Assembly: GCA_965220505.1 (NCBI GenBank)
Contig: CBDCQE010000001.1
Span: forward strand, 1,411,692-1,475,691
Direction of reading: 5' to 3'
Source: Dehalococcoidia bacterium
GTDB lineage: Bacteria > Chloroflexota > Dehalococcoidia > Lucifugimonadales > UBA3495
Length of the DNA: 64,000 nucleotides
Shown here: one piece after another, positions 9,237-62,993 of the stretch
Position numbering within the stretch: position 1 is the stretch's first letter
Layout of the letters: the number at the start of each line of letters is the position of its first letter
Made by a program: the position numbers and the translations under genes
Notes under the pieces: generated by a model
The model's database searches: none
Seen by the model: the letters and a program-made list of their open reading frames with translations, nothing else
What the model was told of the DNA's origin: nothing

Positions 9237-12200
9237 AACAGCAGCGGCCTTCGCAACAGACGTTCTCGCCCCCTGATCCGCGGGGGGGGGGGGGGAAGAA
9301 AGCTCTAAGATGGCCCCTGCTGCCCCTGGCCGGCGTGCTGGCCCTGGCCCTGCTGGCGGTGTTCGTCGCCATGCCGGAGCGGACCGCGCGGGCCAACCAC
9401 AACCCCCCGGCGCCCACCAACCTCCAGTTGGATGGGGCTGTCACCGATACCGCGATCCGAATCAGGTGGAATGCCCCGTCGGATACGACCAACGTCTCCT
9501 GGTACCGCATGGACATTCGGACCAGCCCGTCCGGAAGCTGGGGCAAAGTCTTCTCGAAACAAGCTTCTTTTCCCCGCACCCACACCTTCACGGGACTTCA
9601 GAGCGGTACCGCCTACGACGCACGGGTTCGTTCATGCTATAGCGATAGCGTCAGTCACTGCGGCCAAGGCGTCCAGATTACCGCATCTACGGCCTCGGCT
9701 ACTTTCTCCATAGCCAACACACAAACTGCGGCGCAGGGACTAAACCAAAGTAACATCGACACGAATTACAGGTTGGCCTTGGCCGGCACCACAGTGTCCT
9801 GCTCCGGCTCCGGATTCACTGCTTGTAACAGCCACCTCGAAATCGTCACCAACCCGACGACGGCGGGGCTGAGCATCCTCCGATCCTTACCCGATGGTAA
9901 TGGGATCGCGGTAATAATCAACAAGGACAGCGACTTCGGCCCCTCGCAGGGCTTCACGGTGGCGCTCAAGCTCAAGGCCTCGGGCCACACCGGCACCTAC
10001 GACATCACCTCCAACGCGCTGAGCGTGACGGTCTTAAAACAGCCCGACTCGCCCACGAACCTGAGATTCACCAACACAGGCTCGCCCAACTCGGTCACGT
10101 TCCAGTGGGACCCGCCCAGCGACACCAGCGGCGGCAAGGTCGTGACGGGCTACGACTACCGCTACCGGGTGACCGATCCGGACCAGGGCGCCGGCGACAA
10201 CTGGACCTATCGCAACACCACCGTCACGAGCGCCAACGTCACCAACCTGATGCCGGCCACCGAGTACGACTTCTCGGTGCGCGCCAAGAACGCGCTCAAC
10301 TCGAGCGCTTACGCCACGGCTGTGACGCATACGACGGCCGTGGACCCGGCGGGGCCGCCGGGCAAGCCCACTAATCCGAGGGGAACCGCACTATCCTCCA
10401 CCGAGATCAGGTTCCAGTGGGACGCGCCCGCCGCCGGCTCGGGTGGAACGTTCGCCTATTACCAGTATGATGTCAAGCTCGCCACCGAGACAAGTTGGGG
10501 GGCGCCCTCTGGAGGAACCCCCAACATCAACACTCGAGAGTTTAGGCCCACTGCCCTGCACCCCGGCACGACCTACGAGTTCCGGGTGCGGGCGTGCAAG
10601 TCGAGCGCAGCGACCAATTGCGGCCCGTGGTCGGACACGGCCAGCGCGACGACGAACTACATCCAGCCGAACGCGCCGCCGAACTTCGCAGCCTCCGCGC
10701 TCAATAACAACAATAACGGCACCGACCGGCTGACCTGGGACCCGCCGACGAACACCGGGATCCAGAATTACCAGGTACAACGGCTACGGGACGGGCAAAC
10801 GACCTGGGAGCAAGCGGTCCAGCTTGCGGCCACGCAGACGCAATACGACTTCGCCAAGGCGTCCGGCACTTCGGGCAGCGCCTACCAATATCGCATGTGG
10901 GCGACGGCCGGCACCTTTGTCGGCGCTATTGCGCCGGCAGTCAAGGTCGCCGGGCAGCCGGGCCAGGTCAGCGACCTTACGGCGACGGCGTCCACCACGG
11001 CGGTGGCGGTGGACCTCGCGTGGACCGCGCCGTCCGACGGCGGCAAGGACCTGACCGGCTACTTGATCCAGTGGCGGGAGGACGAGACCGGCAACTGGAA
11101 TGCACCGCGCGGCGCCGATGGAAGTACGACGGCCCCCGCCGGCGCGACCAGCTTCACCGTCGATTCGAGCCACGGCTTGCAGACCGGCACCGTGTATGAC
11201 TTCCGCATCCGGGCGGACAACCCGGACCGCGGCAGCTTCTTCAGCAACACCGCCCAGGCGGACCAGGCGACGGTGAATATCGGCGCGTCGGTTACGGGCA
11301 CCAGTCCCACCACCCTCAAGGAGGGCAACCTGGACGGGGCGACGCTGACGGTGGACCTGGCCGGCGTGACGTATGCGTCCAGCATTGCCGCGAGCCAGTT
11401 CAGCGTGCGGCGGGCGTCCGACGACGCGGCGATTGCGGGGCTGAGCGTGGCCTCGGTGACGCGCGACGGCAGCAACACGGCGACGCTCACGCTGGCCTAC
11501 GCCTGGACCGACGCGGCGATGACGGCGGACACGGACATCGAGGTCGTGGTCCAGGCCGCCGCCCACTCCGGCGGCAGCGGCCTGGTGACCGGCCCGGTGT
11601 CGGTGGGGCATTTCGCCAGTACGACCGGTTCCCTGCCTTCGACCGCCACCGTGGACGAGGGGGACGACGGCAGCGTCGTGATTACGCTGACGGAGCCGGC
11701 GCCCGAGGCCATTACGATTGAATGGTGGACGGCCCCGGATACGGCTGCAGCGAATGTTGACTATACGCATGTGCCGCAAGCCAGCCCCAACGAGGTGGTC
11801 ATTCCGGCCGGCAGCACGACCAGCGGGCCCTTGCCGCTCTCCACCATCGAGGACACCCTCGACGAGGACGACGAGACGTTCTCCGTGACGGCGGGCTTCA
11901 AAGTGGGCACGCTGGGGAATCTGGCCGGCAAGGCGTTCTTAGATGTGCTGGCCTCACGAACCGTCGTCACCATCACCGACGACGACGACCCGCCGACGCT
12001 GTCGGTGAGTTTGCCCAGCGTCCTGGAGGGCGACAGCGGCACGACGGCGATGCCGTTCACGCTCACGCTCTCGGAGGTGAGCGGGCGGACGGTGACGGTC
12101 GGTTACCAGTTCGGCAACGTTCCCGCCGAATTCGGAGATCCGGTTGAGAACGATGACCTGGTGACCGGAACCGGTACAGTGTCCTTCGCGCCGGGTGAGA

Positions 12201-58213: not shown

Positions 58214-58569
58214 GGGGACGCGTAGGTTCGACAGGAGCGGTTTCTGACGGATTGCAGGCCGAGGTTGCTGCTGCCCTCGTAAAAACAGTGGCGAAAAAGT
58301 AACTGGCGAACGTGAATTCGCTCTAGCCGCCTAATCGCGGCTACGTCTGCCACCAGTAGGCCCGGAAGCCGGGAAGCGGACGTACAATCATTCCGGGATG
58401 CTACCTCAGGGACGCCGATACCCGAGGCTATAGACTTTATCGGCTGGCGGTTGACGAATCCCGTCGGCGGGAGTCCTCAGCAGCGAGACTAAAGCGCCGA
58501 ACACGCTTGTAGCATATCCGATCAGGGAAGTTTCTGGACGGGGAGTGCGACTCTCCCCCGTCTCCACCA
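58214..58569 (+). ncRNA. ssrA: tmRNA; tag (A)GEREFALAA*
   Basis: 5' GGGGACG..GGTTCGAC pairs with 3' CGTCTCC-ACCA (G3:U70); tag ORF ggc gaa cgt gaa ttc gct cta gcc gcc taa. Confidence 0.95.
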
Positions 58570-58619
58570 ATTGATATGGTACGGACAACCTTCTCTCTGA
58601 AGGTGCCCCTCGTCAAAAA

Positions 58620-58654
58620 CTCGTGGTCTGACTAGACAGGCCACGGGTTTTTTT
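58620..58654 (+). terminator. Rho-independent terminator after ssrA
   Basis: cgtggtctg-actaga-caggccacg stem followed by a T7 tract. Confidence 0.8.
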
Positions 58655-58704
58655 GTGCAACCCGGAAACCGAACCTGCGCCACTACAAAGAGGATCAACG
58701 CCCC

Positions 58705-59202
58705 ATGACCAACGGAACGAAGCGCCCGTACGCATTCGAGTACCTTCTCACATGCCAGCAGTGTCAGAGCCCGATGCTGATCAAATTCGGACCACTGCCG
58801 GAAGACGACGTTTACCGCTGCTCAAGAGCGCTCACAGCACCCGAACGCACCTGCGCCGCCCCTGACATACGAGCCCGGCAATTCGAAAACTGGCTCATCC
58901 AGGACCTCGCTGAAGTCGTCCTCAGCCCTCGCAACATCAAACTCTTGAGCCACTACCTGTACCACACGGACGTAAAGCCAGAGGATCTAAAAGGATTCCC
59001 GGAGACGGCTTCCGACCCCCTCACCTTCACCACAGTCGATGCTGCGCCCGAAGCCCAACGGCTTTTTGCCAAGTGCATCGACGACATCGCCGTCAATGGA
59101 ACGGAAGCGACCATCCACTACTTGATTCCGCTGCCGCCAGATAGTCCGCTGCCAGGGGCTACGACCCAGATCATCGAACTGCCCGCCCGAGTCCTGCACT
59201 GA
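58705..59202 (+). CDS. Stand-alone large-serine-recombinase zinc-ribbon/C-terminal domain protein
   Basis: YLLTCQQCQSPM...YRC...C...IRARQFENWL and R.F..CIDDIAV...TIHY; no resolvase domain. Confidence 0.7.
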   Translation: MTNGTKRPYAFEYLLTCQQCQSPMLIKFGPLPEDDVYRCSRALTAPERTCAAPDIRARQFENWLIQDLAEVVLSPRNIKLLSHYLYHTDVKPEDLKGFPETASDPLTFTTVDAAPEAQRLFAKCIDDIAVNGTEATIHYLIPLPPDSPLPGATTQIIELPARVLH

Positions 59203-59226
59203 ATACAGTACCGCGCGGTCAAGAAA

Positions 59227-59250
59227 TTGGGGGCGCCTTTGCGCCCCCAA
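59227..59250. terminator. Perfect hairpin between convergent genes
   Basis: ttgggggcgc-cttt-gcgcccccaa. Confidence 0.65.
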
Positions 59251-59272
59251 AGCTTGTGGATACCCGATCCTC

Positions 59273-59524
59273 CTAACCAAATCGGTGTGGATCAGCCTTG
59301 TAGGCTGATATTACCAGCCTCGCAAAGTCCTTCATAACCTCCGACCAGGGACTGACGACCGGAGAACCCGGTGTTGCCGACTCCCGCAAAACCGGGTTAT
59401 CATCCCACTGTTCGGACGAGGGTCCCTCGCCCGACTCTTGCGGCGTCGCGTCGCTTGGTAGGCTTTCACGCGGCGCCTCTTCGTCTTCGTGACCGAACCC
59501 GCTTCGGTCTATGTTCTCTGCCAT
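59273..59524 (-). CDS. Small acidic hypothetical protein (83 aa)
   Basis: AGGAG RBS before ATG 59524; low-complexity D/E/S/P-rich sequence. Confidence 0.45.
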   Translation of the reverse strand: MAENIDRSGFGHEDEEAPRESLPSDATPQESGEGPSSEQWDDNPVLRESATPGSPVVSPWSEVMKDFARLVISAYKADPHRFG

Positions 59525-59614
59525 TTCCGCTTGCTCCTTCTTCGTAATCGTAAGGGACCAGTTCAATCTCTCTACGCCCAAATCAATAGAGACACAGGCG
59601 CTCCCACCTCCTTT

Positions 59615-60286
59615 TCAGATAAGCAGTCCATCCCGAAGCCTGGACTGCACTCGCTCAAATAACTCCTCCGGCACCAGAGGCGGCGTGAAGCCCGTGACGC
59701 GGACCCACTCTGCTGCCTGCGTTGGCACCTTGAACACTTCGCCGTCGGGCGTCCGCATTGTCCGAGTCTTACCGTAGTAATCCACGCCCAAGTACGAACG
59801 GTTCCGCAGCATGCTCAGTACCACGGCGTATCCCCACCTCATTCCGCGCTTCGACGGAATTGCCTGGTCGTTCAAACGCCGTGCGATCCGACTAACCGTC
59901 TCTCCCGCGTCGAACGTCTCGAAAACCCAGAGGACTACCTTGGCCTCGGCGGAGTTCACTACCCTGCGGCCCAACTCACGGTCGTAGTCGAAACCGTAAA
60001 TGCCGTGTCCGGTGCCCACGGGCATGGATCCCGATCTCGCCCGCGCCTCCTGCGCGAACCGCACCAGATCACCAGATGCAGACCGAACTCCCGAGTCTTC
60101 CGGCGGAAATCGAACACTCCCATCGGCAGCGCCGTTTTGCAAATCACCTCCTTTTCGCGTATCCTTAAAAGCGATCTCCCCGAGTTCCTGCTCGGTTGAT
60201 CCCGGTGCCGCGGACGAGGGCTCAATCTCCCGCGGCCCATTTCTTTTTGCGCGAGGCCACTCCCGGGGCCTTGCTCTGTCAGCCAT
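59615..60286 (-). CDS. Stand-alone 'Recombinase' DNA-binding domain of a large serine recombinase
   Basis: IYGFDY....EAKVV..VFE.F..G....RIARRLN...IP...W....V..ML.N..YLG...V.EELFERVQ; AGGAGG RBS; no catalytic Y.R.S domain. Confidence 0.78.
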   Translation of the reverse strand: MADRARPREWPRAKRNGPREIEPSSAAPGSTEQELGEIAFKDTRKGGDLQNGAADGSVRFPPEDSGVRSASGDLVRFAQEARARSGSMPVGTGHGIYGFDYDRELGRRVVNSAEAKVVLWVFETFDAGETVSRIARRLNDQAIPSKRGMRWGYAVVLSMLRNRSYLGVDYYGKTRTMRTPDGEVFKVPTQAAEWVRVTGFTPPLVPEELFERVQSRLRDGLLI

Positions 60287-60287
60287 A

Positions 60288-60953
60288 TCAGTCCTCCTGA
60301 TTCTCCTGCTCCCGCCGTCGAGACTCCCGCTCACGGGCGAGGCTCATGATCATTTCCCTGTCTGGTTGCAGATCGTCGCCCTGGTACACGAGCTGACCGC
60401 GATCACGCCGCCAGTCGTCGCCGTGCCTGACCAAGCCGCCCAGCGACCCGCGTATCGACTCGGCACTAGCTGCGTTCGTCTCCTCAGTACGGAAAATCGC
60501 CTCAGCGAGCGCCTGCTCACGGAGACTGAAACCGTAAACTCGCGCCGCCGCCAGAGCCCGCTCCCGACTATTCCGCTTGCCTGAAACCACACGGGCGTCG
60601 TAAATCGGCTCACCGGTTTCCTCGTCGACGTCAGGCTTGAACGCCCAGAAATCCTTACCGAGGATCGCGCTGACAACCGCGCCGGGCTCGAAAGCCGGCA
60701 AGTCAAAGGCAGTCATCCCGACTTGGCTATCCGCCAAAGGGAATGAGGCCTTCTCGGTCTCATCGCCCACCAAGCCCAAGGCATCCCGAAGCTGATGGAC
60801 GATCTCCAGATGGACCTCGACCCAATGCTTATCCTGAACTGCCCGACTCATCAGCATCTCTGCTTCCTGCTGATCCGCCTCTGCCTGCCGGAGCTTTTCC
60901 AGCAAACCAGACTCCAGCCGCCGAATGATCTCTATCACGACTCGGGACCCCAA
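60288..60953 (-). CDS. Hypothetical protein (N-terminal coiled coil, possible C-terminal HTH)
   Basis: 221-aa ORF whose stop lies 1 nt from the next start; no recognised family. Confidence 0.55.
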   Translation of the reverse strand: MGSRVVIEIIRRLESGLLEKLRQAEADQQEAEMLMSRAVQDKHWVEVHLEIVHQLRDALGLVGDETEKASFPLADSQVGMTAFDLPAFEPGAVVSAILGKDFWAFKPDVDEETGEPIYDARVVSGKRNSRERALAAARVYGFSLREQALAEAIFRTEETNAASAESIRGSLGGLVRHGDDWRRDRGQLVYQGDDLQPDREMIMSLARERESRRREQENQED

Positions 60954-61460: not shown

Positions 61461-62993
61461 ATGCCCGACATCACCTACACACTCGAGCCCATCGTGACGA
61501 AACCCATCAGTTCCCGCGCCCGAGCGGTAATCAAATCCGTGCGTAGGAACACACGATGCCCATACTTGGTCGACGCAAAACTCGGCAGTCCCGAGAAGGC
61601 TCCATTGCTGAGTGCAGAAACCGCGGCAATAGGCGACACGTCGCGGCGCACCATCGCTGACAAATGGAAGAAAGAAACGCAAAGACTTCGCGAAACCGAC
61701 ACCAAGCGCGGGGGGCCTCTTCAAACCATTGCCCAGCGTGCCAACGACCTCATCACCAGAGCCGGGATCCTGAATCGCAACAACCACCGCCCGCCAATCT
61801 ACTCTGAAACGACGATTGCAACGTTCATCAAAATGGGTGCTGCAACACCAAAGGAGTCGCCGCTCATCCGAGCAGCAGGGTACGTAGTTCCGCCACCCAT
61901 TTTCCCGGTCAACCACGACCTCGCAACAGTCGCGCCGGAAATCGCAGCCTACATGGCGCGAACGCACGAACCTCAAAGCATTGAGCAAATCGCACAATGC
62001 CTAGAACACCGACGCGAACTGCTCGCCAAATGGCCAGACCTCGACCTCGCAATCGCCATCCGACAACTGACAGGCATCCAGCCCGACGAGCAAGGGAACT
62101 ACCATCCAGAACAACCTTGGGGAAAGTTCCTCAGCGCGCAGCAACTGGTTATGCACACGGTATTCCGGATCTTCGCCCGCGAAGGCGCCCCATGCACTAT
62201 CGGATACCTGCTCAGAGAAACCGAGCGACTGATCGGCCAGTTTCTGCCCGAGGGATACAACACCCTCGTTGCTGTACGCGTGGCAGTCTCGAAATCCAAT
62301 GACATCACCTGGCAGGGCCCGCGCACCTTCGGCCTACGGAAATGGGGCACATCCGCAGAACCCCAGTACACAAGCAGCCGGCGGGGCAACACCGGCGACC
62401 TGATCCACGCATTCCTGCTCCGGCATGGTCCTACCGAGATCGAGGGCGTGATCGAACACATCCAGCAAACCTCTGGCGCCAAAAAGCGGACCATTCAGGA
62501 AGCCATCAACCATGACCGAGAGAACCGGTTCATCCGCATCTACGATCAAAAAGTGGCCATCAACCCCGTTCCTGATGTACACAACGGTACGTCTCCCTCG
62601 CTGATGGTGGTGCCAGACCAGCGGGAATGTAAGCCGGCGCCAGTCCTGCGGGAGTCGGAACTCGCGTGGCTCACGCGTTACGTGCAGGAGCTCGACGAGC
62701 TGACGCCGCCGCTACCATCCCAAGTGGCCATCACCGGAGCTCGCGCCGCCGGCTTCGCGCAGGTAGGCGACGCTCTGGAGATAACCGTCGTCGCCGAATC
62801 ATGCCACAAGTCAGACCTAGAGCCCAGGATAGCAGACACCGTAGCCGCGGCGACAAAATCAGTCCCGTGTGTGCAACCGAACATCAAGATCCAATCGTGC
62901 GAGCAGTGGGCCAAGGCGCAAGCTCGGAAAACGCCCATCGAATACCGCAGCGTTTGGCTGCCGCCCGACAGGACTCCATGGCAGGAATGCTAA
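61461..62993 (+). CDS. Multi-HTH protein with a C-terminal degenerate minimal-nucleotidyltransferase-like domain
   Basis: Repeated helical wHTH-like units (e.g. TGDLIHAFLLRHGPTEIEGVIEHI); C-terminal VAITGARAAG....DALEITVV resembles MNT GS.A.G....SD.D. Confidence 0.5.
   Translation: MPDITYTLEPIVTKPISSRARAVIKSVRRNTRCPYLVDAKLGSPEKAPLLSAETAAIGDTSRRTIADKWKKETQRLRETDTKRGGPLQTIAQRANDLITRAGILNRNNHRPPIYSETTIATFIKMGAATPKESPLIRAAGYVVPPPIFPVNHDLATVAPEIAAYMARTHEPQSIEQIAQCLEHRRELLAKWPDLDLAIAIRQLTGIQPDEQGNYHPEQPWGKFLSAQQLVMHTVFRIFAREGAPCTIGYLLRETERLIGQFLPEGYNTLVAVRVAVSKSNDITWQGPRTFGLRKWGTSAEPQYTSSRRGNTGDLIHAFLLRHGPTEIEGVIEHIQQTSGAKKRTIQEAINHDRENRFIRIYDQKVAINPVPDVHNGTSPSLMVVPDQRECKPAPVLRESELAWLTRYVQELDELTPPLPSQVAITGARAAGFAQVGDALEITVVAESCHKSDLEPRIADTVAAATKSVPCVQPNIKIQSCEQWAKAQARKTPIEYRSVWLPPDRTPWQEC

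Follow-up and report, generated by a model that had tools for sequence, protein, structure and literature searches.

Why would a genome keep DNA-binding parts of a large serine recombinase (LSR) as separate genes, without a catalytic domain? The question is raised by G000, the genome under study, a metagenome-assembled genome (MAG) of a Dehalococcoidia bacterium from the SAR202 cluster, and by a 64,000-nucleotide stretch of it that we analysed as a whole and call the window. Just downstream of ssrA, the gene for transfer-messenger RNA (tmRNA), the window holds a zinc-ribbon gene (ZnR) that faces a small gene and a Recombinase-domain gene (RD). A first-pass annotation, made from the letters of the window, had taken ZnR and RD for one LSR split into two genes and had offered island decay or retention of domesticated proteins as the explanation. 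Comparing the three genes across relatives, we find them conserved as a unit beside tmRNA and tRNA genes and, in this genome, at one end of an island that has a complete integrase of its own. The trio probably tunes the insertion or excision of that island.

Two integrase modules and a small partner gene

ZnR (58705-59202, plus strand) begins at the ATG at 58705, preceded by a Shine-Dalgarno-like AAGAGGA, and encodes 165 amino acids that form a stand-alone LSR zinc ribbon with a C-terminal beta-hairpin. Its match to PF13408 (Zn_ribbon_recom), at 25.6 bits, is barely above the cut-off of 25.3 bits, and it lacks the Recombinase domain PF07508. The AlphaFold model of ZnR (predicted local distance difference test score, pLDDT, 78), built like that of RD on a small alignment of 7-8 sequences, contains a zinc ribbon, two helices, a short and poorly defined coiled-coil stub and a closing beta-hairpin. 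When this model was searched with Foldseek, the best 23 PDB matches were all LSR zinc domains, those of phiC31, Bxb1 and LI included. LSRs have a coiled coil embedded in the zinc ribbon; ZnR has the ribbon and the hairpin but not the coiled coil, of which about 35 residues are left. Accordingly, its profile aligns with full-length LSRs as two blocks, with about 66 coiled-coil residues skipped.

RD (59615-60286, minus strand; 223 amino acids from the ATG) starts at 60286 behind a Shine-Dalgarno-like AGGAGGA and matches PF07508 at 76 bits, with no match to the catalytic domain PF00239. Its model has disordered residues 1-70, which bear a leader motif, APREIEPSSAAPG, then a helix (65-85) equivalent to the last part of alphaE, and then the Recombinase fold; the best 24 Foldseek matches are all LSRs, with E=1e-9 at best, to the SPbeta integrase. 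Aligned with the phage integrase profile phrog_95, RD spans positions 226-356 and ZnR positions 365-444. Neither protein has PF00239 with the serine of the Y-x-R-x-S motif, and the first-pass annotation was right that no resolvase domain lies within the window: the nearest, at C1:1497808, is 22 kb past its end.

The small gene (59273-59524, minus strand; 83 codons) lies between RD and a perfect hairpin at 59227-59250 (10-bp stem, 4-nt loop) that looks like a minus-strand terminator. An AAGGAG stands 8 nt upstream of its ATG. In an alignment of 10 homologues the N-terminus is variable and of low complexity and the C-terminus is conserved, PWxEVMKDLARLVxAAYxADPHRF; the protein has no match in Pfam, PHROG or NCBIfam. 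Because the small gene separates RD from the hairpin, the convergent partners are ZnR and the small gene. The initial description of ZnR without most of its coiled coil, of RD, of a ribosome-binding site for each and of a perfect hairpin therefore stands, but the claim that both genes converge on that hairpin holds for ZnR and not for RD.

We then asked whether the two proteins could be pieces of one integrase, by searching an RD profile and a ZnR profile each against 83 full-length LSRs. For RD, the scores were 100-175 bits with a lineage that we call 'clade A' (motifs YGYDY..IDYYGKT) but 45-60 bits with this genome's tRNA-targeting LSRs. The pattern was reversed for ZnR, which reached 37-71 bits with the tRNA-targeting LSRs and, matching over its N-terminal half only, 13-27 bits with clade A. 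By these scores, ZnR and RD descend from different LSR lineages. We also considered a single inversion of the segment with ZnR and the small gene within one ancestral integrase, an idea whose attraction is that the end of RD and the start of ZnR both fall at the inter-domain linker. We rejected it, since no inverted repeats flank the segment and the two profiles fit different lineages. The reading of the pair as one split LSR is likewise not supported.

Many of the proteins most closely related to RD terminate directly after the Recombinase domain, with degenerate catalytic motifs wherever the sequence was retrieved, and in SAR202 arrays a paralogue of this kind stands immediately upstream of an intact LSR. 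In clade A arrays (L042 5498-8663, L041 14-2304 and L017 1-2826) the order is a leader open reading frame (ORF), a resolvase-plus-Recombinase-domain (Res+RD) paralogue and a full-length LSR. The RD leader APREIEPSSAAPG reappears on the small ORFs of these arrays, where the motif is APRE[IV]E.S.AAPGP; the Res+RD paralogue, which has no zinc domain and whose Y-x-R-x-S is degenerate (R to L, or S to A), could serve as a non-catalytic partner subunit. At sister loci of the trio, a separate resolvase-domain ORF of varying length, absent from this window, precedes RD; its nucleophile is Ser in two of seven cases and Ala or Asn in the other five. In L034, the closest metagenomic relative, a partial RD duplicate of 118 residues (11634-11990, minus strand), which comprises the leader and the beginning of the domain, stands immediately upstream of the intact RD.

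Recurrence and selection

To find out how widely this arrangement is kept, we searched for ZnR homologues in 40 relatives and then in a collection of 5.8 billion proteins; all homologues come from MAGs or metagenomes. Among the relatives, three further species of this genus (G017, G013 and G004; 44-52% identity) share the convergent arrangement. The larger collection yielded four more homologues, each of 167 amino acids and 52-71% identical, and each encoded opposite a 77-83-residue gene and a Recombinase-domain gene. Overall, ZnR facing the small gene and RD is found at 11 loci in SAR202 genomes and metagenomes, with amino-acid identities of 40-76%; those named here are G000, G017, G013, G004, four metagenome contigs, L039 and L044. 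ZnR has a constant length of 165-168 residues across loci. The trio directly follows a tmRNA or tRNA gene at every locus with a known flank, and at seven loci ZnR is directly downstream of, and co-directional with, a gene for tmRNA (three), tRNA-Ala (three) or tRNA-Pro (one). Within the genus, 9 of the 54 genomes have the small gene; across 400 further genomes of the class the search gave 0 hits, and the module is therefore restricted to the genus.

Selection has acted on these genes. Their frames are intact and their lengths constant at nine of the 11 loci, although dS is saturated (0.9 to over 3). In the least saturated pairs, dN/dS of ZnR is 0.21 (G000-M34, dS 0.86), 0.21 (M35-M37, dS 0.26) or 0.27-0.32, and that of RD is 0.27-0.58. 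Fisher tests gave pN below pS for both genes (ZnR, p = 9e-14 to 3e-5; RD, p = 5e-12 to 3e-3). All four zinc-ligand cysteines (C17, C20, C39 and C50) are kept in the seven intact main-family copies. For the small gene, dN/dS is about 0.5-0.67 overall, with strong conservation of the C-terminal motif. The marks of pseudogenes (a frame broken by shifts or stops, a dN/dS close to 1, an architecture that is not conserved) are lacking except in G004 and L044. The search for homologues with the same truncated architecture, and for their dN/dS, which the first-pass annotation had proposed, thus revealed purifying selection rather than unique fragments evolving neutrally, and recurrence at 11 loci together with pN < pS supports retention, one of its two alternatives. 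We are highly confident that these are selected accessory genes.

More distant, paralogous systems indicate which part of the module recurs. A ZnR-like gene facing a small-ORF-like gene lies within about 1 kb of a full-length LSR in two of them, L026 9321-12940 (G015) and L033 9683-12876 (G017), with ZnR proteins that are 28-34% identical. The recurrent unit is therefore ZnR and the small gene beside the integrase gene (int) and the attachment site attP, and by this comparison RD is an extra component peculiar to the ssrA/tRNA-Ala family. One of the LSRs at these two loci reads into a tRNA gene at its 3' end (...GYRIRTCDT).

An island with a complete integrase and mapped attachment sites

The tmRNA gene (58214-58569, plus strand) matches Rfam RF00023 at 122 bits over the full model, although ARAGORN gave no call for it, and its final six bases are CCACCA (58564-58569). 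The island begins at the next base, 58570, and is 29.1 kb long (C1:1470261-1499361), ending at about 87.7 kb in window terms. The trio occupies its ssrA-proximal (attL) end and the integrase its far (attR) end. The integrase (C1:1497778-1499361) is a full-length LSR with an intact motif, YARVSSDRQ, and the PF00239 domain at C1:1497808 lies within it; a catalytic domain, which the first-pass annotation had suggested looking for elsewhere, is present in the same island.

We placed the island boundary from empty sites in relatives. The attR junction reads ...CCCTACCATATCAGTTGGCCCACCA followed by TTCCTTGAAAGCGCACTCTCCGGGCTGGCCC, and to the right of the junction 122 nt agree with the empty site at 87%; beyond these 122 nt, the flanking gene matches at 94% (empty ssrA sites of G008, G015 and G014). 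In these three genomes, the gene 230-900 nt after ssrA is a match for G000 C1:1499655-1500920 (89-95% identity). No repeat of at least 14 nt from the 3' end of ssrA was found anywhere in the genome, and blastn-short gave nothing convincing. The repeat is CCACCA alone, as expected for a serine integrase; an att repeat sought past 64 kb accordingly exists as CCACCA at the far junction, but not as a long repeat. CCACCA is also the identity block common to attB, attP, attL and attR, and the crossover lies inside this terminal CCACCA of the tmRNA gene.

Together, attL and attR give an attP that is a 40-bp imperfect palindrome, CCCTACCATATCAGTTGG-CCCA-CCAATTGATATGGTACGG, with 18-bp inverted arms that match at 16 of 18 positions around the 4-nt centre CCCA; the P/P' arm sequence is GATATGGTACGG. 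We read this as a typical serine-integrase site. With an LSR, attL and attR that yield a palindromic attP, and an empty attB, the locus has the parts of an LSR-integrated island. In G017 and G013, the orthologous integrases likewise carry the P arm with CCCACCA at their 3' ends. On the other side, a block of about 50 nt after the CCA end of the tmRNA, ATTGATATGGTACGGACAACCTTCTCTCTGAAGGTG, has 34 of about 50 positions invariant in six copies; it also follows ssrA in G017 and L034, and has internal copies after TCCACCA in the tRNA-linked loci L036, L039 and G013. We considered whether this motif might be a chromosomal feature and rejected that idea: other genomes of the genus carry a different sequence after the CCA end, so the block belongs to the element.

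The attL P' arm (ATTGATATGGTACGG...; 58567-58635, plus strand) also encodes protein in the circle. In the integrated form the integrase frame runs through attR for 45 chromosomal codons; in the excised form it would instead take from the attL side a conserved 22-residue tail (IDMVRTTFSLKV...), so that the protein read across attP would end ...SVGPP-IDMVRTTFSLKVPLVKNSWSD at the TAG at 58633-58635. The tail frame is open in all six copies, with the TAG at the same position in five, and over its first 13 codons the variable columns number 3/3/10 at codon positions 1/2/3. Because the changes are mostly at third positions, the attL block is an att arm and integrase-tail coding sequence at once. The frame crosses attP, and the order in the circle is therefore int, ZnR, then the facing small and RD genes; the integrase gene spans attP, and integration therefore swaps its C-terminus. 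The frame closes at the conserved TAG 70 nt before the start of ZnR. We also considered whether excision might rebuild an integrase from ZnR and a distal Res-RD gene, and rejected this because the distal integrase is already complete.

A strong stem-loop followed by a U-run (58616-58654, plus strand) lies over the end of this frame, and the RNA fold of 58570-58660 has -36.4 kcal/mol (z = -5.05). It is predicted to be an intrinsic terminator for ssrA and, in the circular form, for the integrase. Relatives linked to tRNA-Ala (L039 2253-2610, L022 12638-12976 on the minus strand, and L035 113-560) have a frame that runs from the tRNA CCA end, P[SF][DN]TVGRTF..., and continues into a Cys-rich (CxxC) ORF of 90-100 amino acids, which resembles a zinc finger that extends the C-terminus of an integrase and is severed by integration. 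Across the ssrA 3' flanks of one genus (L049-L068), at least six unrelated sequence types directly follow the CCA end; thus ssrA is a heavily used integration site in SAR202. In G011, G006 and G012, a plain terminator alone follows ssrA.

In total the genome has six full-length LSRs. The five besides the island integrase are at C1:667-1632, C1:2057921-2059654, C2:203572-205332, C2:253509-255332 and C3:983806-985599. In at least two of them the frame enters a tRNA gene that lies on the opposite strand (...GIRTRD), and four have a conserved upstream region that translates as ASWC.KP..CTWK.GS...

Upstream of RD, the stop codon of ORF221 (60288-60953, minus strand) stands one base before the RD start (TGAtATG), and the two genes are translationally coupled; RD, the small gene and ORF221 share one operon. 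G004, G013 and three metagenome loci (L035, L036 and L037) keep ORF221 in the equivalent place. The divergent ORF510 (61461-62993, plus strand) is conserved in G004 (57% identity), G013 (52%), L035 and L036. Neither has a family match in Pfam, PHROG or NCBIfam.

What the trio may do, and how it compares with known systems

How might genes without catalysis serve such an island? We lean, a little past an even chance, towards ZnR, the small gene and RD being a catalysis-free accessory module at attL that gates recombination. That the module would act by binding att sites or the integrase is a narrower claim, which we rate somewhat short of even. ZnR and RD would retain the two LSR modules that read att half-sites, but neither the catalytic activity nor the synapsis-controlling coiled coil nor the larger share of the dimer interface. 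With those modules kept and catalysis and the coiled coil lost, DNA-binding-only or integrase-binding derivatives seem most likely. They could occupy the arms of att sites, or the integrase, and so gate recombination at ssrA: the island might be held in place and rivals excluded, or direction might be set with the small partner. A role in setting direction, like that of a recombination directionality factor (RDF), is possible, with only the position beside int and attP and sequence conservation in its favour.

A more specific version, which we think rather unlikely, is that ZnR and the small gene are an integrase-mimic pair that controls serine integrases, with the small protein as the directionality factor. 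ZnR might then be a decoy that titrates the small protein, or might compete with the zinc domain of the integrase on the P' arm, freeing the coiled coil of the integrase; a domesticated copy of the DNA-binding module of the integrase itself would then decide direction, and RD would be a second mimic, aimed at a rival integrase lineage.

Several observations weigh against a gating module. In G017 the cognate integrase is apparently frameshifted while the trio is intact. Located some 160 kb away from ssrA, the orthologous integrase there (C1:1937282-1938867) breaks into two frames at residue 176, by a frameshift or a long-read indel error, and ZnR, the small gene and RD by ssrA are whole; either the function is independent of the element's own integrase or the assembly is in error. 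Decayed copies exist as well: in G004, ZnR is truncated and the small gene has a stop, in L044 ZnR has lost its ribbon half, and in L036, a contig of 2x coverage, RD is frameshifted. Since some copies are degraded, the module is dispensable, although we count it in favour of gating that ZnR and the small gene decayed together in G004. Overall constraint on the small gene is weak (pN/pS 0.55-0.74, p = 0.015-0.12). Finally, RD comes from a lineage other than that of the island integrase and need not read the same att motifs.

Other explanations fare worse. Under neutral decay, the genes would be functionless integrase stumps at an integration hotspot. The many junction types directly after the CCA end of ssrA fit this, as do the broken copies of ZnR, RD and the small gene and the neighbouring resolvase ORFs, which vary, have lost the catalytic Ser in five of seven cases and are deleted here. 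Yet frames and lengths hold at nine of 11 loci at a dS that excludes a recent-copy origin of the homologous loci, dN/dS is 0.2-0.4 (p down to 1e-13), the zinc ligands are conserved, and ribosome-binding sites and operon coupling are retained. We therefore regard neutral decay as very unlikely; the plain island decay first suggested is rejected for this copy, and some others (G004 and L044) did decay. The trio's parts might alternatively be chains of a working split recombinase, in which separate catalytic, Recombinase and zinc-ribbon proteins form an active integrase. A separate resolvase ORF just upstream of RD in most other loci speaks for this, and so do the adjacent, non-overlapping stretches of phrog_95 that RD and ZnR cover. 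It is barely credible all the same: the module of this genome has no catalytic ORF, which refutes it for this locus, the nucleophile is Ala or Asn in five of seven copies at other loci, the coiled coil for synapsis is absent, the pieces are of different lineages, and a complete integrase with its own att sites explains integration.

Two further possibilities concern DNA binding with other ends. ZnR and RD could be domesticated transcription factors that regulate island genes (ORF221, ORF510, the integrase) or host genes and have no att role. In favour, each is a DNA-binding domain that stands alone and has its own expression signals, ORF221 and the small gene share an operon with RD, and the trio in G017 is intact despite its frameshifted-looking integrase. 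We still hold this to be improbable, given the constant position of the module beside attP or int in three divergent systems and the absence of operator-like copies of the att arms (at most 5 mismatches in 20) elsewhere in the genome. More doubtful again is entry exclusion, in which the proteins sit on the 3' end of ssrA or tRNA-Ala and block competing serine-integrase elements. The derivation of ZnR and RD from two distinct LSR lineages, both abundant in the genus, would make sense under exclusion, and the site is contested, with tandem arrays and internal CCACCA and P' remnants in L036, L039 and G013. However, the tandem arrays upstream of the module in these same loci mean that later insertions still occurred at the neighbouring tRNA.

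If the gating module is real, a family of stand-alone integrase DNA-binding modules that selection maintains beside attP would amount to a new type of natural regulator or competitor. Serine integrases are important genome-engineering tools, and the natural control of their direction and site occupancy is known for only a handful of phages. With attB, attP, attL and attR all mapped, the locus offers a full set of sites for an integrase whose target is the final bases of tmRNA, and an integrase tail that changes on integration could act as a built-in switch. It also documents an active-looking mobile-element system at ssrA and tRNA-Ala in SAR202, which are abundant uncultured ocean bacteria.

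Islands at ssrA are known from Dehalococcoides, and the parallel drawn by the first-pass annotation holds at the level of the class and no closer. Those islands carry an LSR of about 540 amino acids whose 3' end overlaps att and grow by tandem accretion; in their integration module, DsiB/DsiA, dsiB overlaps attL on the reverse strand with dsiA adjacent, the integrase is at attL, and the crossover lies in the T-loop with a 20-bp repeat (McMurdie et al. 2011, PMC3146451). The class, the ssrA target, an LSR of about that size whose 3' end overlaps its own att site and tandem accretion are shared with our island, and small catalytic-domain-only recombinase ORFs beside LSR-derived genes recur in our sister loci. 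In contrast, our integrase lies on the forward strand at attR, the end distal to ssrA, the repeat comprises 6 bp (CCACCA at the very 3' end), this copy has no DsiA-like ORF, and the attL end carries ZnR, RD and small genes not described in PMC3146451.

The folds of ZnR and RD match the zinc-ribbon and Recombinase domains of LSRs such as phiC31, Bxb1, LI/A118 and SPbeta SprA, but here the catalytic domain and the coiled coil are missing and the domains are on two chains, on opposite strands and from different lineages. The RDFs of serine integrases (phiC31 gp3, Bxb1 gp47, SPbeta SprB and TP901-1 Orf7) are small, element-encoded proteins that act on the zinc domain or the coiled-coil hinge; their genes are often beside int or att in the circular map, and the class has no sequence definition. 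We know of no RDF that is derived from an integrase. For gp3, binding to phiC31 integrase via the zinc domain is reported (PMC5814800). Small accessory genes beside int or att are thus a likeness to our trio, and the integrase-derived ZnR and RD are a difference; we found no sequence relation between RDFs and the small gene in Pfam, PHROG or NCBIfam. A literature search, itself incomplete, returned no description of stand-alone LSR zinc-ribbon or RD proteins as conserved accessory genes.

Several LSR-related genes also work together within one element in the case of CcrA and CcrB of SCCmec (staphylococcal cassette chromosome mec) and of the triplets of streptococcal and clostridial integrative and conjugative elements; the SAR202 clade A arrays, where the catalytically degenerate paralogue without a zinc domain stands ahead of an intact LSR, resemble them in this. 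Those are catalytic proteins, whereas the SAR202 proteins here lack the catalytic domain entirely. Catalysis-free parts of a recombinase that inhibit the parent enzyme are known in Tn5 Inh, IS1 InsA and the P-element KP repressor. These truncated transposases come from the same gene as the enzyme, whereas ZnR and RD are separate, anciently diverged genes for which we infer inhibition; the logic would be shared, in that a DNA-binding or multimerisation part without catalysis competes for the ends of the element.

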